A stretch of 64,000 nucleotides of DNA from an uncultured Spirochaetaceae bacterium (GCA_944389025.1 CALXKU010000013.1:2868-66867), one strand, 5' to 3'; numbered from the stretch's first letter, positions 29,740-45,715 are shown. Notes: generated by a model from the letters alone, not told the origin. Made by a program: numbers and translations.

Positions 29740-30891
29740 TCAATCGGGCAGCTCAGATATGAAAGCCTTTCCCTCAACAGTCATTTTATAAGCCTCACCG
29801 CTGGCTATCAGAGCCGCCTCTCCCTTCTCAAGAGTAAGAGATTGTAGACCGCAGGAAAATGTGACTCTACCTTCCGTAACGATTGCAATAGAAACTCCCT
29901 CTCCGCTCACGTCATATTCGCCACTTGATACAGATAGGAGTGAGAACTTGTCGGATGGGGATGAGTAGAGTGTACGACCGTGAGAGTCAATCGACGCTGA
30001 GCATTTCTCAACCTTCAATGGGGAGAAGTCCATGATGGCGCAGAGCTCATCAAGATCAATCCTCTTTTTCGTAAGCCCGCCGCGAAGCACGTTATCCGAA
30101 TCATTCATTACCTCAATCCCGTTACCAAGCACATAGGCATGAAGGGTGCCAGGCCTTATAGCCATCGCCTCACCAGGGGAAAGATGCACAACATTCATCA
30201 AGTAAGGAAAAAGGGAGCCGATGTCACCCGCATATTCATCAAGGCATTCCTTTACGATTCCCTCACGGGTAAGGAAACCGTCAGAGAAGGAAGCAGATGA
30301 TGATATTGCCGAGCCAAGTTCGGTAAGAATGCTATCCTGAAGTGGCTTATCAAGGCTGAAAAGAGACTTGAAAAGATGTTCTAGACTGTCGGAGAAAGGC
30401 TTAATCACAGCCTCATATGATGATGGTATCACGTGCGAAAGATCAGCCCTGATCTCATCAATCGATCTGAAACCGCATAGCGCACTGATGGGAGAAAGGG
30501 CGAGAATCATCTCGCATTTCTCGTTATCATCCTGGTATGAGACCTCCGCTCCAGCTTTTCGCTTCTCCTCCTCCCTCTTCCAGCCAAGCTCCGCCTGAGT
30601 ACGGCTAGGATGGCACTGGAGGGAAAGCGGCTTCTCTATTGCAAGCACTTTCATCAAAAATGGAAGACGTCCAGAATACCTGTCCCAGTCCTTGGGGCCA
30701 AGGTATTCCCTGTTTTCAAGCATGAAGGAGGAGAGTCTCTCTCCGTTTACATCAGCATCTCCGGAAGGATGCCCACCCAGCCATAACTCTGCCTGAGGTT
30801 TGCCGTCATATCCTCCGATAAGCGAAGGTATGAAATCCCTGTTACCCCAAGCGTAATTCTTCACAACGCCACTTATTTTTACGATGTTCAT
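29740..30891 (-). CDS. manA: mannose-6-phosphate isomerase, class I
   Basis: VKNYAWGN, ELWLGGHP and LSLQCHP zinc-site motifs. ATG 30891 (MNIVKISG..) is preferred, because the longer track ORF (TTG 30957) would contain the terminator hairpin at 30934-30951. Confidence 0.85.
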   Translation of the reverse strand: MNIVKISGVVKNYAWGNRDFIPSLIGGYDGKPQAELWLGGHPSGDADVNGERLSSFMLENREYLGPKDWDRYSGRLPFLMKVLAIEKPLSLQCHPSRTQAELGWKREEEKRKAGAEVSYQDDNEKCEMILALSPISALCGFRSIDEIRADLSHVIPSSYEAVIKPFSDSLEHLFKSLFSLDKPLQDSILTELGSAISSSASFSDGFLTREGIVKECLDEYAGDIGSLFPYLMNVVHLSPGEAMAIRPGTLHAYVLGNGIEVMNDSDNVLRGGLTKKRIDLDELCAIMDFSPLKVEKCSASIDSHGRTLYSSPSDKFSLLSVSSGEYDVSGEGVSIAIVTEGRVTFSCGLQSLTLEKGEAALIASGEAYKMTVEGKAFISELPD

Positions 30892-30924
30892 GCGCAAAGT
30901 ATAAGGATATGAAAGCTTGAATGC

Positions 30925-30951
30925 AATAATAATCCCTGCCTCGCGGCAGGG
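30925..30951 (-). terminator. rho-independent terminator ending the peptide-uptake operon
   Basis: 7-bp GC stem CCCTGCC/GGCAGGG with a 4-nt loop, followed on the minus strand by ATTATTATT. It lies 25 nt downstream of the stop at 30976. Confidence 0.5.
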
Positions 30952-30975
30952 TATCAAGAGGGGATGGCCACGGAT

Positions 30976-31242
30976 TCACTCGGATGCCGAGTCATCATCC
31001 CAGGCAAGGTTTCCTTCCTTGTCCGTATACGTGTATGCGATTGCATAATATATGACAGGATCTTTCTCCTTCCATCTGCGATATGCGGCGGCCACTGCCG
31101 AAGCCATACCACGGTTGTTAACATAATCCCTTCCCCTCTCGAGCATGATGGATCTCAGAGAGCCGAGGGAAATCCTGATCTTCTTTGAATATAGGGCGAT
31201 TGCAAGCTCCCCTATGAAATCATAGACATCGTCATTGGTCAT
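30976..31242 (-). CDS. hypothetical 88-aa protein
   Basis: Its start overlaps the stop of the upstream TPR gene by 4 nt (ATGA). No signal peptide and no family recognised. Confidence 0.45.
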   Translation of the reverse strand: MTNDDVYDFIGELAIALYSKKIRISLGSLRSIMLERGRDYVNNRGMASAVAAAYRRWKEKDPVIYYAIAYTYTDKEGNLAWDDDSASE

Positions 31243-32063
31243 ACTTTATTCTCCTCCTTTATCAATCCTAGTTTTCGCGCAATCGGGAGTGCTTTCGTAT
31301 ATCCGAACGCACCTGGGTACGCAATCTCCATCAGACGCACGATAGCCGCCCTTGCCTTCTCCTCATCTCCATGGATCATGTGGTACCAGTAAAGGCCGTA
31401 AAGCATCGTGTTCTCCTCTAAGTGCACCCTGTTCTCACGAGGAAGGACGAGCGTAGCCATCTTCTCCTCATCGATGAACTCCTCCGGCTTCACAAGCCCC
31501 TTATAGAGTTTGACGCACATCGAATACCCATAATCCATCTGAGGGGGTACCACATCATCCGCTATAAGGGAAAGAGACTCTTCTGCCTCCTTGTATCTTC
31601 CAAGCTCGGCATAGGATGTGTATATCCAGTGGATTAGAGGATAATGCTCGCTCTCCGCCGTCAAGTGCAGACATTCCTTGAAATCGGAGATGGATGCCTC
31701 GACATCCCCGTTTATATTCATAGTGGTTGCACGGTAGTACCAGTAAAGCCAGTTAGACGGATCCAGCTGAATGGAAAGAGTGTAATCCGCAATAGCCTGC
31801 CAGTACTCATTTTTCAGGCTGTGCTTCCCTCCGCGTCCGAAATAGTTCGGTGCGTAGAACGGGGCGTATGCGATTCCCTTGGAATGGGCCTCAAGGGCCT
31901 CATCGTAACGTTTTTCTAGGCTCAGTGCCTTTCCCATGACATACCAAGCATAGCCATCGGTATCGTCCTTTGCAATAAGGGCCTCTGCCTCATCCATGCT
32001 CGGCTGCATCATCAGCATGCGCCTCATCTCATCATTTCTTTCCTGATTGAAAACGAATTTCAT
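31239..32063 (-). CDS. TPR-repeat protein, paralogue 1 of an uncharacterised 4-member family
   Basis: Starts MKFVFN. Shares PFYAPNYFGRG, ADYTL.IQLDPS.W.YWYYRA, HW.YT.YAELG, PQMDYGY, LYKG.VKPEE and MLYGLYWY.MIHGDE with the ORFs at 36811, 37631 and 42659. ATGA overlap with the S10 peptidase gene. Confidence 0.7.
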   Translation of the reverse strand: MKFVFNQERNDEMRRMLMMQPSMDEAEALIAKDDTDGYAWYVMGKALSLEKRYDEALEAHSKGIAYAPFYAPNYFGRGGKHSLKNEYWQAIADYTLSIQLDPSNWLYWYYRATTMNINGDVEASISDFKECLHLTAESEHYPLIHWIYTSYAELGRYKEAEESLSLIADDVVPPQMDYGYSMCVKLYKGLVKPEEFIDEEKMATLVLPRENRVHLEENTMLYGLYWYHMIHGDEEKARAAIVRLMEIAYPGAFGYTKALPIARKLGLIKEENKV

Positions 32064-33502
32064 GCCTTATCTCCCGGCATATCACCATTCATGAATGCCC
32101 TGATATCATCAGTAAGACTCTTGATGTTATCGTTTCCGATATAGATCATATGCCCTGACGGATAGCCTTTTATGGAGACCCTTTCCTCAGGAAGGTTCGC
32201 ATGGTTGAGCATGTAATACGCGATTCCAATCTCGGTGGCCATGTCGTAGTAGCCGTTTGCGAAGAACGAACGCATGCCAGGAGTTCTCCACATGGCATTA
32301 TAAAGATGCTGAGCCGTAGTGAGCTCCGCCTCCTTGTTCCACTTTTTGTTGATCGTCGTTGTCGGCTTATAGAGCCTCGGGAAATCGTGTATGCCAAGGC
32401 TTGGAAATACTCCTCCTTCAAGGGCAGATATGAAATACGGATTATATTTTCCCCGTGATGCATCGGTTGCAAGACCGTATGCGATCTCGTCAGTAAACGG
32501 ATTGTAAAGAGGCCTTGTCATCCTTCCATCCAGCCTCGACACAGCCTTACCGCGATCCCTTATTACCTCGGCTCTGAACGAGGCATCCTCTATCACAAGG
32601 TTCCTCTCCTCAAGATAGCGGTCGGAGACTCCTGTGAAATACATGATCTTCTTCTTTACCTTCTCCCTCTCCTTGCCCTTGAGAGAGCTGCCACGGTAAA
32701 GGGCGAGCACATACTCGCTGTCTGCGAATGCTCTGGCCTCATGCACCCATTCATCAAGCTCAACAGAATGATCCGTGTTATGGTACCAGTTGATTGCAGC
32801 ATATGTCGGGAAACCGAGGACCGCAGGCTCTGCGGGGACCTCCCTGTTGAAGAACTTGCCGGTTGATACCGAGTTGCCGATGAACACGATTCCGTCGAAT
32901 GCGAAATCATAATACCTGTCAGCACTTCCACGTGCGGCAATACCTGCTGCGCATGCGGCTCTGGTACAGCCATAACTCTCACCGATGACATATTTTGGAC
33001 TCATCCAGCGCTCATATCTCTGAAGCCAGGACTGCATGAAAGAAAGGAGTGCCTCGGCATCCTCTTCCACTCCGTAGAACTGACTGCCCTTAGCCTCGTC
33101 AAGCAGAACACCGAATCCTGTTCCAACCGGATCCACAAGTACGAGATCTGCAATGTCAAGAAGGCACTCCGGGTTGTCTATGACCTCATACGGTGGAAGA
33201 CCGGTCATATCATCGACATCATCCTTGTATTTGATTCTTTTCGGGCCTACAAAACCAAGGTGCACCATCACAGATGATGTTCCCGGTCCTCCATTGAAAG
33301 CGAAGATCACAGGACGCTTTGAAAGGTCCTCAACCCCATCCCTGAAGTATGAGAAAGAGAATATTGAGGCAATCGCTTTGCCATTCTCATCATAGAAGAC
33401 ATTATCCTCGCTTACGCTTCTATAAGAGATCTTCTCCCCTCTTAAGGTTATCTCACCCTTACCCTCGAAACGGGAAGGTGTGAAAACATCGTTGATGAAC
33501 AT
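32060..33502 (-). CDS. serine carboxypeptidase, family S10, cytoplasmic
   Basis: FNGGPGTSS oxyanion block, GESYG catalytic serine motif and a C-terminal GHM histidine block. No signal peptide. GGAGGG RBS. Confidence 0.8.
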   Translation of the reverse strand: MFINDVFTPSRFEGKGEITLRGEKISYRSVSEDNVFYDENGKAIASIFSFSYFRDGVEDLSKRPVIFAFNGGPGTSSVMVHLGFVGPKRIKYKDDVDDMTGLPPYEVIDNPECLLDIADLVLVDPVGTGFGVLLDEAKGSQFYGVEEDAEALLSFMQSWLQRYERWMSPKYVIGESYGCTRAACAAGIAARGSADRYYDFAFDGIVFIGNSVSTGKFFNREVPAEPAVLGFPTYAAINWYHNTDHSVELDEWVHEARAFADSEYVLALYRGSSLKGKEREKVKKKIMYFTGVSDRYLEERNLVIEDASFRAEVIRDRGKAVSRLDGRMTRPLYNPFTDEIAYGLATDASRGKYNPYFISALEGGVFPSLGIHDFPRLYKPTTTINKKWNKEAELTTAQHLYNAMWRTPGMRSFFANGYYDMATEIGIAYYMLNHANLPEERVSIKGYPSGHMIYIGNDNIKSLTDDIRAFMNGDMPGDKA

Positions 33503-33556
33503 GTTCCCTCCTTATAAACAAAATATGGAAGGCATAAGCCCTCCATATCGCCGCCT

Positions 33557-35137
33557 CTAGTTCCTTACTCTGAGGTTATCCCAGAATATGACGTTGTTGA
33601 CGTTGACCTCGAAGCCCTCGACATTGTCACTCATCGTCCAGATGTTGTACCTGTCGTTGGTGAAGATCGCCGCAGGATCGTCTATATAGATGATCTGCTG
33701 AGCCTGCCTGTAGAGATCCGCCCTCTTCTCCTCATCCATCTCGCTCATGGCCTCGGCAAGGAGACGGTCAACCTCGGCATTCGAATACCAGCCGTAGTTG
33801 TTATTGTTGTTTCCGTCCGGTGATGTGGTCCAGATCCTTCTGAGCCCTTCATCGCAGTCAGCGGTTCCGGCCCCATATCCCATGAAGAACATCGCCCATG
33901 GGAAATCCTCTCCAGGATACGTCCTGTTTCCCTGTACAGCCTTGAAGGTAGCGTTATCAACAGTCTCGATCGTTGCGTTGATACCGACTTCTGAGAGCAT
34001 GGCGACTATCATCTCACAGGTCTCTGTCGACTTGTTGTAGTTCGGATAGAGCATGATTGAGATATCGAATCCATCCGGGTATCCTGCCTCAGCAAGAAGT
34101 GCCTTAGCCTTAACCGGATCATAAGGAATAACTCCGAAATCATAGTAACCCCATACGTTCGGGTTAACCGGTGCAGTGCATGCCTTCTCCCCGATATCCG
34201 AATAGAGGGTATCGACGATGAGCTGCCTGTCGATAGCATAGGAAATCGCCTGACGTACGAGCGGACTCTTCGTATACTCGTTGGCGCAGTTGAACTGAAG
34301 ACCATGCGATCCGATTCCCTCGAACATCTTCACCTGGATGCCCGGAGTCTCCTGAAGACGTGGAATCTCAGAAGAGTTCACCGTTGCCACATCGACCTGT
34401 CCGGTCTCGAGGGCTACAAGACGTGCGTTCGCATCTGCTACGATGAGAATATCGATAACCTTCGTAGGAACCTCTCCTCTGAAATGATCAGGGAACGCTT
34501 CGAAGACCATCTCCTGGTCCTTATCCCAGGATGCGAGGCGGTAAGGTCCTGTTCCGTTGACCGATTCAACAGTAAGACCGAGATCCATACCATACTTTTC
34601 AATGTAATCCGCATCAAGAATGAGGTTCGAGCGGTGTGTCAGGTTTGCAAGGAAGCTTGCAACCGGTCCCGTTGTCACAAGACATACGGTGTAGTCATCA
34701 ACAGCGTAGACATCGGCGATGTAACCGCAGGCAAGTGAGCTGTAGCGAACCGCTGGGTTGTCAAGGAGCCTTCTGTATGAGGCAACGACATCGGCGGATG
34801 TGAGCTCCTTTCCGTTATGGAACTTTACCCCGTGGCGAAGATTGAACGTCCATGTGACTCCATCCTCTCCTACAGACCAGCTCTCTGCAAGGTCCCCTTC
34901 GATGCTTCCGTCCAGAGCCCTTCTCACAAGCTGTGAATAGACGGCTCTCAGATAAACATCGTTAGTGTTGTTCATCTGGCCATCCATATACCCCTGATCC
35001 GCACCTGTAGCTATGATCAGAGTGTCCTTATACTCCGGCAGCGCTGCGCTCTCCTCCTTTTCAGATGAACCGCCAGCGAATACGGAAAAGGCAGCGAGAA
35101 AAACGAGTAAAAGTACTAATAAAGCTTTTCTTCTCAT
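33557..35137 (-). CDS. ABC transporter substrate-binding protein, family 5 (peptide/nickel type), copy 1
   Basis: Signal peptide ending VFAGGSS. OppA/DppA-type length and blocks (W..S.DG...TF.LR.GVKFH.G, AEAGYPDGF). Confidence 0.9.
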   Translation of the reverse strand: MRRKALLVLLLVFLAAFSVFAGGSSEKEESAALPEYKDTLIIATGADQGYMDGQMNNTNDVYLRAVYSQLVRRALDGSIEGDLAESWSVGEDGVTWTFNLRHGVKFHNGKELTSADVVASYRRLLDNPAVRYSSLACGYIADVYAVDDYTVCLVTTGPVASFLANLTHRSNLILDADYIEKYGMDLGLTVESVNGTGPYRLASWDKDQEMVFEAFPDHFRGEVPTKVIDILIVADANARLVALETGQVDVATVNSSEIPRLQETPGIQVKMFEGIGSHGLQFNCANEYTKSPLVRQAISYAIDRQLIVDTLYSDIGEKACTAPVNPNVWGYYDFGVIPYDPVKAKALLAEAGYPDGFDISIMLYPNYNKSTETCEMIVAMLSEVGINATIETVDNATFKAVQGNRTYPGEDFPWAMFFMGYGAGTADCDEGLRRIWTTSPDGNNNNNYGWYSNAEVDRLLAEAMSEMDEEKRADLYRQAQQIIYIDDPAAIFTNDRYNIWTMSDNVEGFEVNVNNVIFWDNLRVRN

Positions 35138-35182
35138 ATGTCCTCCTTATATAGAGGAAGGCCATGGGACCTTCCATGAATG

Positions 35183-36766
35183 TTAGTTCCTTACTCTGAG
35201 GTTATCCCAGAATATGACGTTGTTGACATTGACATCGAAACCTTCGACCTTGTCACTCATCGTCCAGATGTTGTACCTGTCGTTTGTAAAGACCGCAGCC
35301 GGGTCATCGATGTAGAGAATCTGCTGGGCCTGCCTGTAGAGATCCGCCCTCTTCTCCTCATCCAGTTCGCTCATGGCCTCATCAAGCAGGCGGTCAACCT
35401 CGGCATTTGAATACCAGCCGTAGTTGTTATTGTTGTTCCCGTCCGGAGATGTGGACCAAATTCTTCTCAGTCCCTCGTCACAGTCGGCAGTTCCAGCACC
35501 GAACCCCATGATGAACATCGCCCATGGGAAGTTCTCACCCGGGTATGTCCTGTTGCCCATGGCTCCGGAGAATGTTGCCATATCTACAGTCTCGATTGTC
35601 GCGTTGATGCCGACTTCAGCAAGCATCGCAACGACCATCTCACAGGTCTCAGTCGACTTGTTATAGCCAGGCTGAAGCATGATTGAGATATCGAATCCAT
35701 CTGGGTATCCTGCCTCAGCAAGGAGAGCTTTCGCCTTCTCCACATCCTGAGGGATCACTCCGAAGTCGTAGTAGCCCCATACGTTCGGGTTAACCGGTGC
35801 TGTGCATGCCTTCTCCCCGATATCCGAATAAAGGGTATCAGCGATAAGCTGCTTATCAATCGCGTAGACTACCGCCTGGCGAACAAGTGGGCTCTTCATG
35901 TACTCGTTGGCACAGTTGAACTGAAGACCGTGAGCTCCGATGCCCTCATATGTCTTAACCTCGACTCCCGGGGTCTCCTTCAGGCGTGGAATCTCTGATG
36001 TGTTAACGACCGTGACATCAACCTCCCCTGTCTCGAGTGCTACAAGACGAGCATTTGCATCAGATACGATGAGGATATCTACATTCTTCGTAGGAACCTC
36101 TCCTCTGAAGTAGTCAGGGAATGCCTCAAGAACCATCTCCTGGTCTCTGTCCCATGAGACAAGACGATAAGGTCCTGTTCCGTTCACGGATTCTGCCGTA
36201 AGACCGAGATCCATACCATATTTTTCGATGTAGTCCGCATCAAGGATGAGGTTCGAACGGTGCGTCAGGTTCGCAAGAAGGCTTGCAATCTGCGTGGGCG
36301 TTACGAGGCACACCGTGTAATCATCGACAGCGTAGACATCGGAGATGTACCCCTTCGCAAGAGAGCTGTAACGTACTGCGGGATTATCAAGGAGCCTTCT
36401 GTATGATGCAACAACATCGGCAGAGGTAAGCTCCTTTCCATTATGGAACTTGACCCCGTGGCGAAGATTGAACGTCCATGTGACTCCATCCTCTCCTACA
36501 GACCAGCTCTCGGCAAGGTCCCCTTCGATGCTTCCATCCAGAGCCCTTCTCACAAGCTGTGAATAAACTGCTCTGAGATATACGTCGTTGGTGTTGTTCA
36601 TCTGGCCGTCCATGTAATTCTGATCGGAGCCTGATGCGAAGCGAATCGTATCCCTGTATTCAGGAAGAGCAGAGTCTTCCGTCTCCGCATCACTCGTTCC
36701 GAGGGCGAAAACCGAGAAAGTCACAGCCATCATGATCATCATTAAAGCAATCGTTTTCTTCAACAT
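35183..36766 (-). CDS. ABC transporter substrate-binding protein, family 5, copy 2
   Basis: Tandem paralogue of copy 1, with an identical run of about 88 aa (YMDGQMNNTNDVYLR...VRYSSLA). Signal peptide ending FALG. Confidence 0.9.
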   Translation of the reverse strand: MLKKTIALMMIMMAVTFSVFALGTSDAETEDSALPEYRDTIRFASGSDQNYMDGQMNNTNDVYLRAVYSQLVRRALDGSIEGDLAESWSVGEDGVTWTFNLRHGVKFHNGKELTSADVVASYRRLLDNPAVRYSSLAKGYISDVYAVDDYTVCLVTPTQIASLLANLTHRSNLILDADYIEKYGMDLGLTAESVNGTGPYRLVSWDRDQEMVLEAFPDYFRGEVPTKNVDILIVSDANARLVALETGEVDVTVVNTSEIPRLKETPGVEVKTYEGIGAHGLQFNCANEYMKSPLVRQAVVYAIDKQLIADTLYSDIGEKACTAPVNPNVWGYYDFGVIPQDVEKAKALLAEAGYPDGFDISIMLQPGYNKSTETCEMVVAMLAEVGINATIETVDMATFSGAMGNRTYPGENFPWAMFIMGFGAGTADCDEGLRRIWSTSPDGNNNNNYGWYSNAEVDRLLDEAMSELDEEKRADLYRQAQQILYIDDPAAVFTNDRYNIWTMSDKVEGFDVNVNNVIFWDNLRVRN

Positions 36767-36810
36767 TTCATTCCCCTATTTTTACTGATGGGCATATCCC
36801 ATCTGAATTC

Positions 36811-37620
36811 CTATTCGATTATTCCCAGTTTTCTGGCAATAGGTACAGCCTTCGTATAGCCGAACGCCCCGGGCACTGCAATCTTCATAAGATGCTTTAT
36901 GGCATCATATGCCTTCTTCTCATCCCCATGTATCATCCAGTACCAGTAAAGTCCGTAGAGCATACCGTTCTCCTCAAGAGCAACCCTTCCAGGTTGAGGA
37001 AGGACAAGGCGAGCCATCTCCTCCTCGTTGATGTATTCCTCTGGCTTGACGATGCCCTTATAAAGCTGAACCGAACGCCTGTAGCCGTAATTGCGCTGAG
37101 GACATTCGACGATGCCATCCACATATTCAAGACTCTCTTCGGCCTTATCATAGAGTCCAAGCTCGGCATATGTGGTATAAAGCCAGTGGACTATGACATA
37201 GCGCTGGGAGGGGATTGTCAGAGGAATGCACTCCTCAAAATCGGAAAGCGCGCTCTCGATATCCCCATGTACGCTCTCACAGGTCGCCCTGTAATAGCGA
37301 TATGTCCATACCGACGGATCTAGCTGGATGCACATCGTAAAATCGGCAAGGGCGGCGTAATAGTGGCCCATGCTGTTATGCCTCCTTCCCCGTCCGAAAT
37401 AGTTAGGTGCGTAGAATGGATGATACATTATTCCTTTTGAGAAAGCCTCTAAGGCCTCCTCAGCTCTCTTCTCAAGACCGAGGGCCATACCGAGTTTGAA
37501 CAGGGCATAACCGTCTGTCTCATCCTTTTCAAGGAGAGCCTGAGCTTCCGCCAATGTCGGCTTCATCATCAGGATATCAGATATCTCATCCGTCTTCTTC
37601 TGGTTATACACGAATTTCAT
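36811..37620 (-). CDS. TPR-repeat protein, paralogue 2
   Basis: Same conserved blocks as 31239..32063. It follows paralogue 3 after a 10-nt gap. Confidence 0.7.
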   Translation of the reverse strand: MKFVYNQKKTDEISDILMMKPTLAEAQALLEKDETDGYALFKLGMALGLEKRAEEALEAFSKGIMYHPFYAPNYFGRGRRHNSMGHYYAALADFTMCIQLDPSVWTYRYYRATCESVHGDIESALSDFEECIPLTIPSQRYVIVHWLYTTYAELGLYDKAEESLEYVDGIVECPQRNYGYRRSVQLYKGIVKPEEYINEEEMARLVLPQPGRVALEENGMLYGLYWYWMIHGDEKKAYDAIKHLMKIAVPGAFGYTKAVPIARKLGIIE

Positions 37621-37630
37621 GCAAGACCGC

Positions 37631-38443
37631 CTATTTTATTATTCCAAGTTTTTTTGCAATCGGCTGTGATTTCAAAAGCCCGAAAGTCCCCGGATAACCG
37701 ATCTCCTGAAGCCTCTTTATCGCATCATAGGCCTTCTTCTCGTCCCCATGAATCATCCAGTACCAGTAGAGCCCGTAGAGCATGTGGCTCTCTTCGAAAT
37801 GGACACGGTTTGGTCTGTCTATTACGACCTTTGCCATCTCCTCCTCGTCGATATAATCCTCAGGCTTAACGATGCCCTTGTAAAGCTGGACGGCTCTCTC
37901 GTAGCCATAATCCATCTGCGGAGCCTTTAGAGAACAGTCAATAAGATCCAGAGACTCCTCGGCCTTCTTATAGTCCCCAAGTTCGGCATATGTGGTGTAA
38001 AGCCAGTGAATGAGTGGATAGTGCTCATGAGGGTCTGTAAGGTGCAGGCACTCTTTGAAATCATCAATTGAATCCTCAAGAAGCCCCCCTCTCACATTCG
38101 CCGTAGTCGCCCTGTAGTACCAGTACGTCCAGTTAGATGGATCCAGCTGTATGCAGAGTGTGAAATCGGCCATAGCCCTCTTCCACTTTCCTGCAGCATT
38201 ATGCCTTCTGCCCCGTCCGAAATAATTGGGGGCGTAGAACGGCTCATACATGATTCCCATAGAATAGGCATCGATCGCCTCATCAATTCTGTTTTCTCCA
38301 GCAAGTGCCGTTCCCATGACATACCATGCGTAGCCGTCCGTCTCATCCTTATCAAGGAGCGCCTGAGCCTCTTTAACCGTTGGGCTCATCATCAGGATAT
38401 CGCGCATCTTCCTGTTCTTCTCTTCATTGTATACGAATTTCAT
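37631..38443 (-). CDS. TPR-repeat protein, paralogue 3
   Basis: Same conserved blocks. AGGAGG lies 9 nt upstream of the ATG. Confidence 0.7.
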   Translation of the reverse strand: MKFVYNEEKNRKMRDILMMSPTVKEAQALLDKDETDGYAWYVMGTALAGENRIDEAIDAYSMGIMYEPFYAPNYFGRGRRHNAAGKWKRAMADFTLCIQLDPSNWTYWYYRATTANVRGGLLEDSIDDFKECLHLTDPHEHYPLIHWLYTTYAELGDYKKAEESLDLIDCSLKAPQMDYGYERAVQLYKGIVKPEDYIDEEEMAKVVIDRPNRVHFEESHMLYGLYWYWMIHGDEKKAYDAIKRLQEIGYPGTFGLLKSQPIAKKLGIIK

Positions 38444-38500
38444 TCTTCACTATCCTCCTTTTCAGAAGCTTCAAAGGAAAAATTCCTTTGAAACTCATAT

Positions 38501-39481
38501 CTATCTCTTATGCACCTTGTGACAGGCAACAAAATGCTCCGGAGAAATTTCTTTAAGCTCAGGGACTACTGAGGAGCACTCCTCCGTTGCGAACGGGCAG
38601 CGGGTGTGGAAACAGCAGCCCGTTGGTGGATGCCTCGGAGATGGAACATCTCCCTGGATTTCAGCCTGCATCGTCTTCATATCCGGATCAGGCACTGGGA
38701 TTGCACTTAAAAGCGCCTTCGTATAAGGATGCTCGGCATGCTCGAAAAGCTCATCCTTGGATGTGATTTCCACGATATGTCCAAGATACATGACAGCAAT
38801 TCTGTCACAAAGATGATGGACGACACTGAGATTGTGAGAGATGAAGATATATGTCAGCCCCCTCTTCTCCTTGAGCACCTTCATCAGATTAAGAATCTGA
38901 GCCTGAATGGATACATCCAGCGCGGATACCGGCTCATCGCAGATTATGAGCTCCGGGCTGAGAGTAAGTGCTCTTGCAATTCCAATCCTCTGCCTCTGTC
39001 CGCCTGAGAACTCATGAGGGTATCTCGTAATCTGGTCGCTATTGAGTCCGACCTCCTTCATCAGACGCTCAACAAGGCTGTTACGCTCCTCCTTCGTCCC
39101 CTTCTTATGCTCATCCAGCGGCTCTCTTATGCAGCGTCCGACGGTGAAACGGGGATCAAGGGATGAGTAAGGATCCTGAAATATGATCTGTATCTTCTCA
39201 GCCATCTCCTTGCTATAGCGTCTCTTATCAGAGAGGATAGACTCCCCTCTGAATTTTATCTCTCCGGATGTCGGACGCAGAAGTCCCACGATGGTGTGCC
39301 CCGTGGTGGATTTCCCGCATCCGGACTCACCGACGATGCCGAAAGCTTCTTTTTTATAAACGTTGAAGCTCACTCCGTCGACGGCCTTTACGTATTCCTT
39401 TTTACCTATGATGGAATTCCCCTTCACAGGATAATAGACCTTGAGGTCTTTGACCTCCAGAAGAACTTCCTTATTCTCCAT
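38501..39481 (-). CDS. oligopeptide/dipeptide ABC transporter ATP-binding protein (OppF/DppF type)
   Basis: Walker [10 protein letters not shown], signature FSGGQRQR, Walker B ICDEPVSALD and a C-terminal Cys-rich oligopeptide-ATPase tail. ATG 39481 follows GGGGGAGAG and overlaps the upstream stop by 11 nt. Confidence 0.9.
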   Translation of the reverse strand: MENKEVLLEVKDLKVYYPVKGNSIIGKKEYVKAVDGVSFNVYKKEAFGIVGESGCGKSTTGHTIVGLLRPTSGEIKFRGESILSDKRRYSKEMAEKIQIIFQDPYSSLDPRFTVGRCIREPLDEHKKGTKEERNSLVERLMKEVGLNSDQITRYPHEFSGGQRQRIGIARALTLSPELIICDEPVSALDVSIQAQILNLMKVLKEKRGLTYIFISHNLSVVHHLCDRIAVMYLGHIVEITSKDELFEHAEHPYTKALLSAIPVPDPDMKTMQAEIQGDVPSPRHPPTGCCFHTRCPFATEECSSVVPELKEISPEHFVACHKVHKR

Positions 39482-40460
39482 CTCTCTCCCCCTTCTCATA
39501 TTTCCAGCAACGGACAAGTCTTCCATCATCAAGAGGGAAGAGAGGTGGCGCCTGATTCACGCACTTATCCGAGCAGTATGGACAGCGCGGAGAGAACCGG
39601 CAGCCAGCGGGGTAGTCTTTCGGGCTGGGAATACTTCCCTTGATTGAAAAGAGCGTATCCTTCTTGTCCGTAGGGCTCGGTATGGACTTGAGAAGTCCTG
39701 ATGTGTAGGGATGAAGGGGATCCTTGAAGATGCTCCTTACATCCGCGTACTCAACCGCAAGACCGGCGTACATGACCATCACACGCTTCGCAATCTGAGC
39801 AACGACACCAAGATCATGGGTGATGAGTATGATTGAAGTATGGTTCTCCTGCTGAAGATCCTTCAGAAGATGCATGATCTGAGCCTGTATGGTGACATCG
39901 AGAGCCGTGGTTGGCTCATCGGCAATCAGGATATCTGGATTGCAGGCAAGTGCCATGGCTATCATGACACGCTGCCTCATACCACCTGAGAGCTGATGGG
40001 GATACTCATCGAGCACCTGCGCAGCAGACGGGATCTTGACTTTTTCAAGCATCTCAAGCGCCTTTGCCCTCGCCTCCTTCTTATTCATCCCCTGATGGAG
40101 GCGGAGGATATCCGTTATCTGATAGCCGATCGTGAATACAGGATTGAGCGATGTCAAAGGTTCCTGGAAGATCATGGAAATATGATTTCCCCTAATCTTA
40201 CGCATCTCCTTCTCGCTTTTCTCAAGAAGGTTCTCACCACGGAAGATGATCTTGCCATCGATGATTTTGCCAGGAGGAGTTGCAACGATCTGAAGTATGG
40301 AGAGGGACGTGACGCTCTTGCCGCATCCCGATTCCCCTACGATTGCAAGGGTCTCATCCGGCATTAGATCGAAATCCAGTCCGTCAACCGCGGGGACCAC
40401 ACCCTCCTCCGTATAGAAATATGTTTTCAGGTTTTCAACCTTAAGTAGCGGTTCTGCCAT
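39471..40460 (-). CDS. oligopeptide/dipeptide ABC transporter ATP-binding protein (OppD/DppD type)
   Basis: [16 protein letters not shown] and [13 protein letters not shown] 40460 ([11 protein letters not shown]) is preceded by AAGGAG. The longer track ORF prefix has no homology-like features. Confidence 0.9.
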
Positions 40461-40471
40461 AAAGAATCTCC

Positions 40472-41311
40472 TTACCTGGTATTCTTGAGTTTCGGATCGA
40501 GGGCATCTCTCAGACCGTCTCCGACAAGGGAGAAGCTCATGACGACCAGAGTGATTGCGATACCCGGGAATATCGCCTCCCACGGATTCGAACGTAAAAC
40601 ATCCTTTGCCTTATTGAGCATCGCACCCCATTCCGGATTTGGCGGCTGTACGCCAAGGCCCAGGAAGGAAAGGGAGGATGAGGTGAGGATGGCCGATCCG
40701 AGATTCAGCGTCACGTTTACAATCATCTGGGAAACGGAGTTTGGAACGATATGCTTGCATATGATCTTGAAACTGCTTTCCCCTATCACCTTCGCTGCCC
40801 CGATATACTGCGCGTCCTTGTTCGTCATTACGACACCGCGCACCATTCGCGCTATGGACGGTATCGAGAATATCGAGATAGCGACTATGGTATTACCAGT
40901 ACCGTTTCCAAGTATTGCTACTACGACTATCGCCAGAAGAAGGCTTGGAAAAGCCAGAAGCACATCGATGACCCTTGAAATCACAGAATCAACCCAGCCA
41001 CCGAAATATCCTGCGAGAACACCTAAAACTATTCCGACAAAGCAACCGGAGAGTACGCCGGTGAAACTGATGTACATAGATATGCGCGCACCATATACGA
41101 TTCTTGTCAGGATATCACGCCCGAGATAATCCGTTCCGCACGGGTGCTCAAGGCTCGGTCCCTGCCCTATCTCCCTCAGATTCTGCTCAAGCGGCCCCTC
41201 AGGGAAGAAAAGAGGTCCGAAAATGGCCATGAAAAAGAAAAGGCAGAGAATTACGAGGCCTATGACAGAAACCTTTCTCTTAATGAATCGTCTGAATATT
41301 GGATTTTTCAT
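40472..41311 (-). CDS. peptide ABC transporter permease (OppC/DppC type)
   Basis: N-terminal TM, the periplasmic GTD.LGRD motif, an EAA-type loop and 6 TM segments. Confidence 0.9.
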   Translation of the reverse strand: MKNPIFRRFIKRKVSVIGLVILCLFFFMAIFGPLFFPEGPLEQNLREIGQGPSLEHPCGTDYLGRDILTRIVYGARISMYISFTGVLSGCFVGIVLGVLAGYFGGWVDSVISRVIDVLLAFPSLLLAIVVVAILGNGTGNTIVAISIFSIPSIARMVRGVVMTNKDAQYIGAAKVIGESSFKIICKHIVPNSVSQMIVNVTLNLGSAILTSSSLSFLGLGVQPPNPEWGAMLNKAKDVLRSNPWEAIFPGIAITLVVMSFSLVGDGLRDALDPKLKNTR

Positions 41312-41317
41312 AGAACC

Positions 41318-42250
41318 TCACTTTATCTTCACTCTAGGATCAACGAATCCATAAAGGATATCGACAATCGTATTCACCACGACGAAAGAGAACGAAAGAA
41401 TAAGAACTGTGCTCTGTATCGCCGGATAGTCACGTCCGTTCACGCTGTTTACAAGGAATGTACCGATTCCTGGAATGTTGAAGATCGTCTCGACCATAGT
41501 AGCTCCTGCAAGCAGACTTCCGAATCTCAGGCCGATTGCCGTCAAAACAGGAATGAAAGCGTTCTTAAACGCGTATTGGGTGATGATCTTCCTCTTTGAA
41601 ACACCGTAAGCCTTCGCTGTCCTCGTATAATCCTGGTTGATGACATCAAGCATCGAGGAGCGGGTAGTACGGGATATCATGCCTATGGCTCCAAGGCCGA
41701 GTGTCGCAATCGGGAGTATCGCATGTTTCCATGTAGTCAGACCAAGGCTTGGCAGAATGCGCAGATGCAGGCAGAAGAAGAGCATGAGCAGCATTGCAAG
41801 GAAGAAGGACGGCACGGATACGGCAATCATCGAAATGACCATTACGATGTTGTCCCCCGCCTTGTTATGGAACGTCGCTGCTATGATACCCGCGATTACG
41901 CCGAGTAGAGAACCGAGCACTGTTCCTCCGAGGGCAAGTATGATCGTATACTGATACCTGTTCGCCAGCTCGGTGGCAATCGTCTTATGGGTGACTATGG
42001 AAGTGCCAAGGTCCCCATGGAATATGCCTGCAATCCATCTCAGGTACTGCACAATCAGAGGATCATTGAGTCCGTAGTGCTCTCTCATGGCCTCAATGGT
42101 CGCCTCATTGGATCCACCGCCCTCCGACACGCCGTAAAGCAGCGTGATCGGATCGCCGGGGATAATCCTTACCATGAGAAATACTACAACGGAAACGAGA
42201 AACAGAGTCGGTATCAGTTGTAATAAACGTCTTATGATATATTTCAGCAT
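41318..42250 (-). CDS. peptide ABC transporter permease (OppB/DppB type)
   Basis: MLKYIIRRLLQ.IP N-terminus, the GDP motif and the YTRTAKA.G block are all typical of OppB/DppB. Confidence 0.9.
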   Translation of the reverse strand: MLKYIIRRLLQLIPTLFLVSVVVFLMVRIIPGDPITLLYGVSEGGGSNEATIEAMREHYGLNDPLIVQYLRWIAGIFHGDLGTSIVTHKTIATELANRYQYTIILALGGTVLGSLLGVIAGIIAATFHNKAGDNIVMVISMIAVSVPSFFLAMLLMLFFCLHLRILPSLGLTTWKHAILPIATLGLGAIGMISRTTRSSMLDVINQDYTRTAKAYGVSKRKIITQYAFKNAFIPVLTAIGLRFGSLLAGATMVETIFNIPGIGTFLVNSVNGRDYPAIQSTVLILSFSFVVVNTIVDILYGFVDPRVKIK

Positions 42251-42594
42251 AGGGCAGCTATCACACTCATCTCAAGAAGATATCCGTCATCGATTTTGGA
42301 CTCGATGCAGACTCTCGCCGGTGCGCGTCCTGGAACCGTCCAGGCGTTGTAAACCTCATTCATCTCAGCCTTGAGTGACATGTCAGAAATGTAGATTGTC
42401 ACCATCAGAAGGTGAGCCTTATCCGTACCATGGAGCTTAAAAAGCTCATCATAACGCTCAAGAAGGGCTTTAGTCTGCTCCTTGATCGTCGCGTGCTTCT
42501 TTCCGTCCACATGTCCGCTGAAATAGATTATGCCGTTATGGACCGTGGCACGGGAGAATGTTGCTGCCGGATCGATGTATTTGATGTCTTCCAT
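42244..42594 (-). CDS. RidA/YjgF/TdcF-family protein
   Basis: 116 aa with the family's length and blocks (G...FSG....D........Q....L, PAR..I). Confidence 0.8.
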   Translation of the reverse strand: MEDIKYIDPAATFSRATVHNGIIYFSGHVDGKKHATIKEQTKALLERYDELFKLHGTDKAHLLMVTIYISDMSLKAEMNEVYNAWTVPGRAPARVCIESKIDDGYLLEMSVIAALC

Positions 42595-42658
42595 TTTATC
42601 TCCTCCTTCATCCAGGACCCAAAGATGGTCGTCTTTGAGCCCCGCACGTGAAATCTCC

Positions 42659-43471
42659 TTACTTTATTATTCCAAGCTTCTTTGCGATTGGAATTCCCTT
42701 CGTATAACCGAAAGCCCCTGGGACTCCGATTTCCATCAGGCGTGCAATCGCATCATAGGCTGCCTTATCATTGCCATTCATCTTCTGGAACCAGTAAAGG
42801 CCGTAAAGCATTCCGCACTCCTCGAGGTGCACTCTGCCCGGTCTGTTGAGAACTGCCTTTGCCATCTCCTCTTCGTTGATGAACTCCTCCGGCTTAACGA
42901 TGCCCTTGTAAAGCTGAACAGCCCTCTGATAGCCATAATCCATCTGAGGAGCATGAGCCTTGCTGCAATCAATGAGATCAAGGCATTTCTTAGCCTCGTC
43001 GAACTTTCCAAGCTCACAGTTTGATGTATAGAGCCAATGAACGAGAGGATACTGCTCATCCGGATTCGTGATATTCAGGCACTGCCTGAAATCATAGATG
43101 CAGTTCTCATACTCTTCATGTGTATTCCATGTTGTAGCCCTGTAATACCAGTATGTCCAAGTGGAAGGTTCAAGCTGGATGCAGAGTGTGAAATCTGCAA
43201 TTGCCTGCCTCCATTCACCAACAGCATTATGACGTCTGCCTCTTCCAAAATAGTTAGGTGCGTAGAATGGTGCGTATGAGATACCGATGGAATGCGCCTC
43301 TATAGCCTCCTCCACCTTACCGCTGTTTGAAAGGGCGACAGCCTTCTTGTACCATGCAAGAGGATCCGTCTCATCCTTCTTAAGCTCAGCCTCAGCCTCC
43401 TCAAGAGTCGGCTGCATCATGAGGATGTTCCTCATCTCGAGATTCTTCTCTTCGTTGTAAACAAATTTCAT
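42659..43471 (-). CDS. TPR-repeat protein, paralogue 4 (first gene of the peptide operon)
   Basis: Same conserved blocks as the other three. AAAGGAGGG RBS. Preceded by a 376-bp AT-rich intergenic region. Confidence 0.7.
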   Translation of the reverse strand: MKFVYNEEKNLEMRNILMMQPTLEEAEAELKKDETDPLAWYKKAVALSNSGKVEEAIEAHSIGISYAPFYAPNYFGRGRRHNAVGEWRQAIADFTLCIQLEPSTWTYWYYRATTWNTHEEYENCIYDFRQCLNITNPDEQYPLVHWLYTSNCELGKFDEAKKCLDLIDCSKAHAPQMDYGYQRAVQLYKGIVKPEEFINEEEMAKAVLNRPGRVHLEECGMLYGLYWFQKMNGNDKAAYDAIARLMEIGVPGAFGYTKGIPIAKKLGIIK

Positions 43472-43723
43472 TTGATACCCTCCTTTGAATATCAGAACAA
43501 AACAAATATAGAAAAATGATAACTCAAATAATATTTGATAGTCTACATTTCAATTGTATTTTTTTCGCATATTTATGCAGGAATAATACAGATGGTTACA
43601 TTCCTCTACCATAGGCTATTTATAGACTGAAAGACTTCAAACTTAAACATCTTAAAGCAAAATCATAACGGCAATATTTTCTTTATATTTATATAGGTTT
43701 GTTTTAAATATTATTTCTTTCCT

Positions 43724-43735
43724 GAAATTAATTTC
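43724..43735. promoter_or_regulatory. perfect palindrome GAAATTAATTTC (copy shared with the sorC upstream region)
   Basis: The 14-mer CTGAAATTAATTTC is identical to 50858-50871. It lies between the end of the sugar operon and the start of the peptide operon. Confidence 0.25.
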
Positions 43736-43847
43736 GAACATCACTTATTTAAATGCTTTTAAAATCAAAGAAAACAATGCTCTGGGCAGAAAAGGGATGC
43801 GGATACAGATGAGCTACAAAACTTTAAAAATAAGTGTCGGTCTATAA

Positions 43848-44282
43848 TTAATAACACCAATTATCCCTGATATAATCATAACTGAATTCGATAGACTTCA
43901 CAGTAAGAGGAAGGCAGAGATGAGGTGGATCGTCGGCCTTAAAACTGCCAGGACGAAGCACCGAGCAGTTTAGGGATGAGAATTCTTTCTCGAAAGCGGA
44001 GGCAAAGCCATTGCAAAGCTTTTCGATATCAGATCGGCTTTTTCCTAGTGAAATCCCCAGAAGGCCTATGAACATGAGAGTGCCCTCAACAAGGCCGCAC
44101 TGGGCACCGTAATATGATGCCCCATGCATTCCAAGAGCGGCAGAGAGAACATCCTCTGCCAAAGGAACAGAGAAGAGATGGGAAAGACACCTCAACGTGG
44201 TCCTTGCACAGTTCTCATCCTCATCATAGTACAGGTGGTGAACCTCAGAGGCTATAAATGATCTTTCATCATCTCTTATCAT
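43848..44282 (-). CDS. C_GCAxxG_C_C-family protein
   Basis: The three spaced Cys blocks of the family are present (ENCARTTL, YYGAQCGLVEG, SSLNCSVL). ATGA overlap with the kinase gene. Confidence 0.6.
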   Translation of the reverse strand: MIRDDERSFIASEVHHLYYDEDENCARTTLRCLSHLFSVPLAEDVLSAALGMHGASYYGAQCGLVEGTLMFIGLLGISLGKSRSDIEKLCNGFASAFEKEFSSLNCSVLRPGSFKADDPPHLCLPLTVKSIEFSYDYIRDNWCY

Positions 44283-45715
44283 GAGCGGAATATGTTCCTT
44301 ACAGATGGGTATATCAGCTTAAAGCGCTCATAGAGTTTCTCATAATGCCTTACCCTCTCCTCATTCGGATAGTATGTTTCAGATCGCATACCGGCAAGAA
44401 TCGAGGAGATGAAAGCCGAATAGGATGAGATCAGCTTCTTACCATAAAGCACTACAGATGAGAGTGCGATGCTCGGTAGCGCCTCCGAGTCCTCGAAGAC
44501 AACAACAGGAGCATTGAATATGTCTGCGAATATCTGATTCCATACGCTCTCACTCGCCCCTCCTCCTATCAGGGAAACACTGGAGGGCTTGATCCTGTGA
44601 TTATCCATCCCCATTCTGAGAGAGAATGCAACACCTTCAAGGGCACTCCTTGCAAGATCTGATAGCGTGGTGGAGTTATCCAGTCCGACATATACACCCC
44701 TTACCTTGTCATCCGCAACAGGAAAGCGCTCTCCTACAAGGTATGGCATGCACAGAAGGTTCTCATTTCCATGCTTATCAGAGGAAAGAAGATCATGAAG
44801 GACATCATACCTGTTACTCTCCCCTTCCGGATATATGACTCTCGATATCCAGTTATGGACATTAGCAGCGTTCAGAACCGGGATGACGTTGATATAAAGC
44901 CCCCTGTTTATCGCGGCAAGATTGAACACCCCCTCCATCGGGCGATCCGAGAGGGATGCAACCCATCCGCTCGTGCCGAGATTCACGCTGAATTCCCCCG
45001 CTCTCGTAACACCGGAGGCGAGAGTGGTCGCACCCGCATCCCCGGAGCCTACAAAGACTTCCACATTTCTCCTGAAACCTGTCGCCTCAGAGGCTTTATC
45101 ACTCACAAGACCTGCGACCTCATCCGAATACATCAGAGTGGGAAGAATACGGCTCTCAACAAGCCCGGAAAGCGGGATGTATTCTTTTTTCAGGATATCC
45201 ATCATACCGGATGTGGACATGTTTGTAACATCGGAGACACATCGCCCTGTAAGCTTATATACAAGGTAATCCTTCGCACTTATAAGCAGATGCTCAGCCT
45301 TCTCAAGAACATCAGGCCTGTTCTTTTTGAACCACAGCATCTTGGCAATAGGGATTGTCCCATTCATCGATATCGTTGTCAGCTCAGAAACATAGGAAGG
45401 CAGTTCATCAACAAACTCGGCTCCCCGCTGGTCATCATATAGCACAGCGTTTCCTATGGGCTCCCCAGAGCTATCGAGAAAATACAGATCCTGCATCTGC
45501 CCCGAGAAGATGATGTAATCAATATCAGAGGTGTCAAACCTCTTCGTTAGAGAAAGAAACGCCTTCCACCACTCATGCGGATCCTGCTCTATGAATCCAT
45601 CGGAGTGTATCGTGCTGATGTTCTCCTTGCCAGAAAATGAGATGTTCTGCTTCTCATCCAGGACGACGCACTTCAAGGCTGTCGTTCCGAGATCGAATGC
45701 CGCTATTCTTGCCAT
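44279..45715 (-). CDS. FGGY-family carbohydrate kinase
   Basis: N-terminal DLGTTALK phosphate-1 motif, a central GSGDAG-like block and the C-terminal GGGASES..W.QI.ADIF motif. 478 aa. Confidence 0.85.
   Translation of the reverse strand: MARIAAFDLGTTALKCVVLDEKQNISFSGKENISTIHSDGFIEQDPHEWWKAFLSLTKRFDTSDIDYIIFSGQMQDLYFLDSSGEPIGNAVLYDDQRGAEFVDELPSYVSELTTISMNGTIPIAKMLWFKKNRPDVLEKAEHLLISAKDYLVYKLTGRCVSDVTNMSTSGMMDILKKEYIPLSGLVESRILPTLMYSDEVAGLVSDKASEATGFRRNVEVFVGSGDAGATTLASGVTRAGEFSVNLGTSGWVASLSDRPMEGVFNLAAINRGLYINVIPVLNAANVHNWISRVIYPEGESNRYDVLHDLLSSDKHGNENLLCMPYLVGERFPVADDKVRGVYVGLDNSTTLSDLARSALEGVAFSLRMGMDNHRIKPSSVSLIGGGASESVWNQIFADIFNAPVVVFEDSEALPSIALSSVVLYGKKLISSYSAFISSILAGMRSETYYPNEERVRHYEKLYERFKLIYPSVRNIFRS

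Follow-up and report, generated by a model that had tools for sequence, protein, structure and literature searches.

Why should an operon for a peptide importer carry four diverged copies of a cytoplasmic tetratricopeptide repeat (TPR) protein? The question is raised by positions 30976-43471 of a 64,000-nucleotide (nt) window, the whole stretch of DNA analyzed here, from an uncultured Spirochaetaceae bacterium (GCA_944389025.1 CALXKU010000013.1:2868-66867). In this region, the genes TPR1 to TPR4 stand in a minus-strand unit with genes for an oligopeptide (Opp)-type ATP-binding cassette (ABC) importer, two family-5 solute-binding proteins (SBP5), a Rid (YjgF/L-PSP) protein, and an S10-like serine carboxypeptidase homologue. 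Our analysis reveals that the region represents a cassette for taking up and breaking down peptides that has spread horizontally among anaerobic bacteria of the gut and rumen. Constant in this cassette are an Opp-type ABC importer, at least one SBP5, a Rid2-like imine/enamine deaminase, and one to five TPR copies, and its variable parts are cytoplasmic exopeptidases, here S10 and elsewhere pairs of S9 enzymes, an M19 dipeptidase, or amidohydrolases. The dedicated TPR family and the dedicated Rid clade are the signature parts of the cassette. As to what the TPR proteins do there, we tentatively propose, at a confidence just short of calling it probable, that they are cytoplasmic binding modules that couple import to trimming and to Rid-mediated disposal.

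A cassette of TPR, Rid, and importer genes

A scan of one genome per Genome Taxonomy Database (GTDB) species recovered 18 loci with the TPR family, and the proteins of the window operon were compared with these loci by tblastn. The loci come from uncultured Spirochaetaceae and Spirochaetales metagenome-assembled genomes (MAGs), which are nearest to the window (87-91% identity), and from Flexilinea (Chloroflexota), Owariibacterium komagatae, Angelakisella, Allofournierella, Lawsonibacter, one Lachnospiraceae MAG, and one Oscillospiraceae MAG. The order TPR, Rid, OppB, OppC, OppD, OppF, SBP5 is kept at every locus with sufficient flank (L002, L005-L008, and L010-L016). Linkage of the TPR genes to Rid, OppBCDF, and SBP5 is therefore not a peculiarity of Spirochaetes but is seen in Flexilinea, Oscillospiraceae, and Lachnospiraceae as well; the initial annotation had proposed a survey for such linkage to SBP5 and Opp permeases in other genomes, and its outcome is positive, with peptidases usually present. 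Diverged relatives (25-43% identity; L020, L022, L023/L026, L024, L028, L065, and L069) hold the same parts in shuffled order, as follows.

L020 (39% identity): TPR, TPR, SBP5, OppBCDF, amidohydrolase, TPR, TPR, Rid, S9, S9
L022 (32% identity): OppBCDF, TPR, TPR, SBP5, S9, S9, Rid
L026: IclR, then M19, TPR, TPR, Rid, TPR, SBP5, OppBCDF, S9, S9
L028: three TPR genes, then SBP5 and Opp
L024: OppC, TPR, 817-residue triple-module fusion, GntR, YjgF-family protein
L065 and L069: SBP5, Rid, about 2 kb (with an S9 gene in L065), TPR, OppBCDF; L065 has LysR upstream

Cytoplasmic exopeptidases (S10, S9, M19, or amidohydrolase) are the usual companions of these cassettes, and an S10 orthologue lies close by in most related ones. 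In the Oscillospiraceae loci L010, L012, and L013, a divergent operon encoding an M19 dipeptidase, a 587-residue Amidohydro_3 protein, and S10 adjoins three TPR genes, Rid, Opp, and SBP5. The cassette hydrolases (S10, S9/acylpeptide-hydrolase-like, M19, and amidohydrolases) are exo-acting on short peptides, and none of them reaches an equivalog cut-off. Minimal cassettes also exist: L014 and L016/L019 consist of TPR, Rid, importer, and regulator with no peptidase close by. SBP copy number varies from one to at least four among related cassettes, and no consistent rule matching TPR copies to SBP or hydrolase number emerged.

The steadiest partner of the TPR family is Rid, not S10. A TPR gene is kept directly upstream of Rid in nearly all cassettes, and the linkage holds in both directions. 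When metagenomes were searched with a profile of the cassette Rid, all 11 loci whose Rid is at least 51% identical had a family TPR gene directly upstream, and among the 29 metagenome loci with a Rid at most 47% identical, two (L065 and L069) had one. The window protein matches PF01042 at 66.5 bits and scores 44.3 bits against TIGR00004 (RidA), for which the cut-off is 106.25. Its closest solved relatives are PSPTO_0102, NMB1025, and PA5083, of which PSPTO_0102 and PA5083 are Rid2-subfamily imine deaminases with a broad substrate range (PMC5619798). The label RidA in the initial annotation was thus right as to the Rid family, although the protein lies nearer the Rid2 subfamily and is best described as Rid2-like rather than as canonical RidA. 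The catalytic-type Arg (in PARVCIE) is present; the Arg of PARVC is invariant in ten cassette Rid proteins and aligns with the PAR of PSPTO_0102. With its YjgF/L-PSP match and this active-site Arg, the protein falls among the deaminase-competent subfamilies (RidA and Rid1-3). A comparative-genomics paper on Rid proteins does not mention peptide transporters. In the minimal Oscillospiraceae cassette L019, the gene after that for the SBP encodes a GntR/FCD regulator, toward which a gene of the Ldh_2 family is transcribed (17429-18445 and 16719-17366). The Ldh_2 family includes cyclic-imine (pyrroline/piperideine-2-carboxylate) reductases, and the presence of this gene may be a coincidence or a further imine-related link.

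The importer proteins of the window are 70-80% identical to those of Oscillospiraceae and Lachnospiraceae and 80-88% identical to those of Flexilinea (L005, L010-L016), while OppB is 70-94% identical among related cassettes. These identities are far above the inter-phylum expectation, indicating that the whole cassette moved horizontally among gut and rumen anaerobes.

The TPR paralogues are maintained. In a neighbor-joining tree of 47 copies, TPR1-4 of the window define four orthologous groups, and all four groups persist in Flexilinea as well as in five Spirochaete MAGs. A separate three-way expansion took place in Oscillospiraceae, and the distant clade has its own position-specific pair; paralogue sets arose at least twice independently. 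Compared with the orthologous cassette L002, TPR1-4 show nonsynonymous divergence (dN) of 0.06-0.23 with saturated synonymous divergence (dS), on par with Rid, S10, and OppC; for TPR4, dN is 0.064 and dS is 1.22. Every TPR paralogue of the window is under strong purifying selection. All four genes are intact (269-274 residues), each exact sequence recurs on 20-70 public contigs, and each 90% cluster has 43-62 members, mostly full-length. Selection on each copy and this recurrence put the genes well outside what chance would give. The window copies are functional genes, and those of other strains proved intact and constrained rather than disabled, as the initial annotation had considered they might be. 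The sole family copy found outside a cassette, a TPR1-type gene between a histidine kinase gene and a ThiF gene in the Spirochaetales MAG SUG940 (L017:5097-5905), is interrupted in frame by a stop at codon 41 and shifts frame near residue 201, and it is a decaying pseudogene unless these defects are MAG assembly errors. At L024, the fusion protein P0222 (L024:1413-3866; 817 residues) joins three diverged family modules head-to-tail; it is preceded by a single-module gene and an OppC fragment and followed by GntR and a 154-residue YjgF-family gene. This fusion suggests that the paralogues may work together as one multi-module assembly.

Fold of the TPR proteins and candidate roles

TPR1-4 all begin MKFV(Y/F)N and share 60-67% pairwise identity, with 119 invariant columns that include the conserved blocks quoted in the initial annotation, where the identity had been put by eye at half to two-thirds of positions. 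All four proteins exceed the gathering cut-off of the Pfam models TPR_1 and TPR_2, and Pfam and NCBIfam give only such generic TPR matches, with no signal peptide, helix-turn-helix (HTH), cofactor motif, or enzyme fold. The AlphaFold model of TPR3, built from a 43-sequence alignment, has a pLDDT of 94.6 and a pTM of 0.90. It comprises 16 helices: an N-terminal pair is followed by about six TPR-like hairpins, and a single helix lies at the C terminus, with an irregular stretch at residues 189-212. Foldseek against the PDB and a PDB profile search returned TPR scaffolds only (consensus TPR, OGT, APC/C subunits, TOM70, PP5, and PEX5), and no solved enzyme is found among more than 200 significant structural matches of the model. 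The absence of a signal peptide, an HTH, and a catalytic domain, noted earlier by eye, therefore stands after Pfam, NCBIfam, AlphaFold, and Foldseek.

The family has no assigned function and no dedicated Pfam or NCBIfam model, and PHROGs and PADLOC hold no named family for it. Among 5.8 billion proteins it forms 83 clusters, all of them unnamed, "hypothetical," or merely TPR repeat protein. A full-length profile hidden Markov model (HMM) search was overwhelmed by giant multi-TPR proteins (257,010 matches at E ≤ 0.001, with about six true members in the top 150), and it contributed the members P0170, P0171, and P0279 and the triple fusion P0222; a profile of the C-terminal half yielded only unnamed distant proteins or fragments of "TPR repeat protein." Two apparent domain fusions, P0057 (S49) and P0060 (PepSY), are likely chimaeras and uninformative, each joining a partial family sequence to a partial foreign domain on a contig of 1-2 kb. 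A defence-system reading was rejected, as PADLOC was silent apart from a weak Rid-domain match. Literature searches on TPR with RidA and oligopeptide or on dehydropeptide with RidA found no description of the family, nor of any Opp-type operon that itself encodes cytoplasmic TPR and Rid components. Overall, the TPR family is well supported but uncharacterized, a matter of moderate rather than high surprise.

Conservation within the fold points to a possible binding face. The A helices (2A, 3A, 5A, 4A, and 6A) are more conserved than the B helices; F75, Y109, and T113 fall at the canonical TPR ligand-contact positions 5, 5, and 9 (register taken from the consensus-TPR alignment), and three of the seven paralogue-specific positions (45, 115, and 118) lie in A helices. 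The binding-module reading is preferred because it best accommodates the TPR fold, the conservation of the A-helix face, a location in the cytoplasm, a copy number that varies, and the exopeptidases encoded alongside. According to this proposal, the aromatic-rich, concave A-helix face would hold short imported peptides or, alternatively, a peptide-like segment of a cassette partner such as Rid, the peptidase, or the importer ATPases. Binding would couple import to trimming and to the Rid-mediated removal of reactive imine or enamine products, and the paralogues may be subspecialized for distinct ligands or partners.

Several points weigh against this proposal. The placement of the strikingly aromatic A-helix face as the concave face comes from the TPR register and not from a measured surface. 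Invariant R77, D93, R111, and C132 sit at usually structural positions, so that conservation need not mark a ligand site. The close adjacency of TPR and Rid fits a catalytic or Rid-specific role equally well. The minimal cassettes L014 and L016/L019 have no peptidase nearby, and a pure peptidase-adaptor role is therefore not general. Ordinary Opp systems function without a cytoplasmic TPR binder, and the need for one is unexplained. Finally, the residues of a carboxylate clamp are missing. Carboxylate-clamp TPRs (Hop, PP5, TOM70, and PEX5) are among the top profile matches over residues ~22-140, and they bind short C-terminal peptides in a concave groove, which would suit an exopeptidase-rich cassette. 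The clamp consists of Lys/Asn/Asn/Lys/Arg at helix-A positions of three consecutive repeats; the groove of TPR1-4 is instead aromatic, not basic, with Y41, T45, G76, T106, and Y110 at the equivalent positions.

A narrower version of the adaptor idea, in which the TPR proteins confer specificity on the S10 peptidase, had been raised in the initial annotation. It is weakened by the minimal cassettes, by the others that have S9, M19, or amidohydrolases, and by the fact that the invariant neighbor is Rid; with S10 neither constant nor the closest neighbor, it is the least general form of the idea. The closest same-length fold for TPR3 is that of the protease adaptor NlpI (TM score 0.56-0.62, 18-19% identity), which like TPR1-4 consists of ~270-290 residues made up of TPR hairpins throughout. 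In Escherichia coli, NlpI brings the peptidase MepS to the protease Prc; the common theme would be a TPR adaptor that acts together with peptidases. The likeness ends there, since NF008391 gives 12.6-15.5 bits against a cut-off of 250, and NlpI is an outer-membrane lipoprotein that acts in the periplasm on folded proteins, whereas TPR1-4 are encoded in importer operons and lack a lipoprotein signal, their N terminus (MKFVYNEEKN) being hydrophilic with no Cys lipobox.

Alternatively, the TPR proteins could be chaperones that help the exopeptidases, the Rid trimer, or the importer ATPases to fold, assemble, or remain stable, much as small TPR chaperones serve secretion systems, and they would then make no contact with the imported ligand. 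The top NCBIfam match of TPR1-4 is the class II chaperone family SycD/LcrH (TIGR02552), TPR1 is translationally coupled to S10, and TPR and hydrolase numbers match loosely in some cassettes (3:3 in L010, L012, and L013; 2:2 in L022). However, the scores of 31-37 bits are far under the 104.8-bit cut-off, the counts disagree in cassettes of the Spirochaete/Flexilinea type (4-5 TPR to one hydrolase) and in the minimal ones (1:0), and S9, S10, M19, and Rid proteins are normally self-sufficient. The class II type III secretion chaperones (SycD/LcrH/IpgC) are likewise small TPR proteins of the cytoplasm, and their concave groove accommodates extended peptide segments, but they have ~160 residues and three TPRs, and the neighbors in the window are transporter and peptidase genes, with no secretion genes. 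We consider a chaperone role unlikely.

The constancy of Rid raises a further possibility, namely, that the TPR protein is an enzyme, or an essential subunit of one, that makes the imine or enamine hydrolyzed by Rid, for example, a cofactor-free lyase or hydrolase acting on imported noncanonical peptides with dehydro-, D-, or otherwise modified residues; TPR and Rid would then be the catabolic core of the cassette. Characterized Rid2 operons place the Rid gene beside an imine-producing enzyme and a transporter (dauA, PMC5619798; dgu and dbu, PMC12724383), and in the cassettes the slot of that enzyme is occupied by a TPR gene almost without exception. The Pseudomonas operons dauBAR, dguABC, and dbuABC accordingly resemble the cassette in combining a Rid2-like deaminase gene, a transporter, and a dedicated partner, but their partner is an FAD-dependent D-amino-acid dehydrogenase or oxidase rather than a cofactor-less TPR protein with a peptide-type ABC importer. 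Minimal cassettes (L014 and L016) hold no other candidate enzyme, and down to 27% identity the polar residues S61, R77, D93, Y109, Y181, and K189 do not vary. Partners of the M19 and Amidohydro_3 type would also fit, as these families include dehydropeptidases and D-residue-tolerant dipeptidases. Against catalysis stands the fold itself, a plain TPR solenoid with no enzyme among its structural matches. Moreover, there is no conserved His or nucleophile pattern (H146 is Asp in many members, and C132 lies at the canonical small-residue position 27) and no cofactor motif, up to five paralogues per operon would be unusual for a catalytic step, and we know of no catalytic TPR domain. A catalytic role is, in our judgment, distinctly unlikely. 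We hold as very unlikely the specific form in which TPR and the Rid2-like clade make up a two-protein catabolic unit, the TPR protein being the catalyst or a substrate-holding subunit that releases an enamine or imine and Rid converting this to the keto acid; its candidate substrates would be, for example, peptides with dehydro-amino acids or D-residues from peptidoglycan, lanthipeptides, or damaged dietary protein. If true, this would add catalysis to the roles of TPR solenoids for the first time, and it would open a new pathway for breaking down peptides in gut anaerobes.

It is well established from the RRNPP family (Rap, NprR, PlcR, PrgX, Rgg, and AimR-type proteins) that TPR receptors in the cytoplasm can recognize peptides imported by Opp. 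TPR1-4 could likewise be sensors of imported peptides, RRNPP-like without the HTH, that control a transcription factor or, through protein-protein contact, gate the ATPases of the importer. A regulator gene usually flanks the cassettes (GntR/FCD, IclR, LysR, or a histidine kinase with an AraC-type response regulator), and at L024 a GntR gene stands between the TPR and Rid genes. On the other hand, the flanking regulator family varies by clade with no constant partner, and the window cassette has no adjacent regulator gene. In keeping with the earlier separation from RRNPP, TPR1-4 lack an HTH or Rap-type effector domain, the model being TPR-like through all 270 residues, and have no sequence-family match to RRNPP. 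No cognate pro-peptide gene adjoins them, the gaps within the unit being at most 64 nt and those around the TPR genes 10-64 nt or overlaps. Furthermore, Spirochaetes and Chloroflexota are among the carriers of the family, and the TPR genes lie inside the importer operon in one to five copies with translational coupling to an enzyme gene, an arrangement that would suit stoichiometric structural components better than regulators. We therefore regard a sensory role as unlikely. Taken together, the way TPR1-4 work comes closest to that of known TPR adaptors and receptors (NlpI, RRNPP, and class II chaperones), yet they lack the marks that define membership in each of these groups.

The unit in the window

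The ORF table, together with Pfam and NCBIfam, gives 13 closely spaced minus-strand genes at 30976-43471, in the tightly packed order and spacing that had been proposed. The features, listed in the direction of transcription and all on the minus strand, are as follows.

43472..43847, minus: upstream region, AT-rich, 376 nt; strong ribosome-binding site AAGGAGG 7 nt before the TPR4 ATG
42659..43471, minus: TPR4, 270 residues; directly upstream of the Rid gene
42244..42594, minus: Rid (YjgF/L-PSP), Rid2-like, 116 residues; PF01042
41318..42250, minus: OppB-type permease; orthologues have BPD_transp_1_N and BPD_transp_1
40472..41311, minus: OppC-type permease; orthologues have OppC_N and BPD_transp_1
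39471..40460, minus: OppD-type ATPase, start set at MAEPLLKV; orthologues have ABC_tran and oligo_HPY
38501..39532, minus: OppF-type ATPase; real start probably the ATG at 39481
37631..38443, minus: TPR3, 270 residues; the copy used for the AlphaFold model
36811..37620, minus: TPR2, 269 residues; 10 nt downstream of TPR3
35183..36766, minus: SBP5 (DppA/HbpA/GsiB-like) with signal peptide; PF00496, 294.6 bits
33557..35137, minus: second SBP5; PF00496, about 295 bits; 85% identical to the first
33522..33549, minus: hairpin of 12 bp with a T-rich tail, from a consensus scan; between the second SBP gene and S10
32060..33502, minus: S10-like serine carboxypeptidase homologue, 480 residues, without signal peptide; PF00450
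31239..32063, minus: TPR1, 274 residues; start overlaps the S10 stop (ATGA)
30976..31242, minus: 88-residue ORF; start overlaps the TPR1 stop; outside the conserved cassette
30934..30951, minus: GC-rich hairpin of 7 pairs, 6 of them G-C, with a poor T-tract; 3' of the last gene

Four-nucleotide overlaps (ATGA) join S10 to TPR1 and TPR1 to the 88-residue ORF, Rid overlaps OppB, and the remaining intergenic gaps are 6-64 nt. The listed OppD ORF runs 39471-40583 from an upstream GTG, and the MAEPLLKV start is our own reading. The hairpin at 30934-30951, named earlier as the end of the unit, is indeed found, and it likely ends the operon, although its T-tract is weak. The 376-nt region upstream of TPR4 likely holds the operon promoter. 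Its sigma-70-like matches (43545-43516 and 43737-43710) are weak and no better than in shuffled sequence, and the region contains no Rfam element (riboswitch or leader RNA) and no plausible ORF for a secreted pro-peptide with a signal peptide. The second hairpin (33522-33549) is a possible internal attenuator or RNA-stability element for the upstream SBP message, and the unit may therefore not be uniformly expressed. The flanking genes (29740-30957 and 43848-45715) seem unrelated to the cassette. By eye only, the downstream 405-residue ORF resembles type I mannose-6-phosphate isomerase, and of the upstream genes, which encode a 144-residue Cys-rich protein and a 478-residue protein, the latter resembles an FGGY-type sugar kinase.

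The importer is of the Opp/Dpp type, with OppB- and OppC-type permeases, two ATPases with oligo_HPY, and a family-5 SBP with a signal peptide (the ATPase and permease domains were read from orthologues). No SBP equivalog model reaches its cut-off with the SBPs of the window, and the closest PDB relatives of the first are 5u4o, HbpA, and DppA. The two SBPs share 85% protein identity, 83-89% DNA identity in the blocks compared, and an identical stretch of more than 80 residues, a pattern that points to a far younger duplication than that of the TPR paralogues (60-67%) or to ongoing gene conversion. The S10-like protein matches PF00450 with an E value of 4e-12 (46.6 bits against a cut-off of 21.9) and contains the GESYG and GHM (SGHMIY) motifs in translation; its membership was assessed on the Pfam match and these Ser and His motifs. 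The assignment as an S10 carboxypeptidase thus holds, with the restriction that the Pfam match spans residues 52-212 only. The protein has no sequence relative in the PDB.

The 88-residue protein had been counted as a member of the unit, but it is missing from every related cassette (tblastn) and belongs to a separate mobile family. It has no Pfam, NCBIfam, PHROG, or PADLOC match, and in a confident AlphaFold model (pLDDT 89) it folds into a bundle of four helices for which the PDB offers no match. The very strongly conserved family (82-93 residues, 34 invariant columns, 67 clusters, 58-84% identity) includes proteins sourced to Gammaproteobacteria and Vibrio parahaemolyticus. On Gammaproteobacteria-sourced contigs (L029-L031), the homologues lie among integron-cassette-like genes (ParE/Phd pairs and a glyoxalase), and one homologue is directly beside a phage-integrase-family gene and IS110 transposases. 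A role as system component or signalling pro-peptide was rejected on its lack of a signal peptide, its absence from other cassettes, and its mobile family. The gene looks like a mobile passenger that arrived at the 3' end of the operon and then became translationally coupled to TPR1; as a later insertion, it would have no role in the system.

Meaning for peptide use by gut anaerobes

Opp/Dpp importers are among the commonest bacterial nutrient systems and are regarded as complete without a cytoplasmic helper. One importer lineage is nevertheless accompanied by its own TPR family and its own Rid clade in gut and rumen anaerobes of at least three phyla, which argues for an extra, unrecognized step between peptide import and amino-acid release. 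This step could be a hand-over of peptides, protection from reactive or toxic products, or new chemistry. Since Owariibacterium komagatae 13GAM1G (L010), with the cassette at about 2.40-2.42 Mb of AP031406, is a cultured carrier, genetics and biochemistry are feasible. The cassette offers a testable handle on peptide use by abundant uncultured gut Spirochaetes and Oscillospiraceae, as well as on the roles of Rid2-type proteins outside D-amino-acid oxidation.

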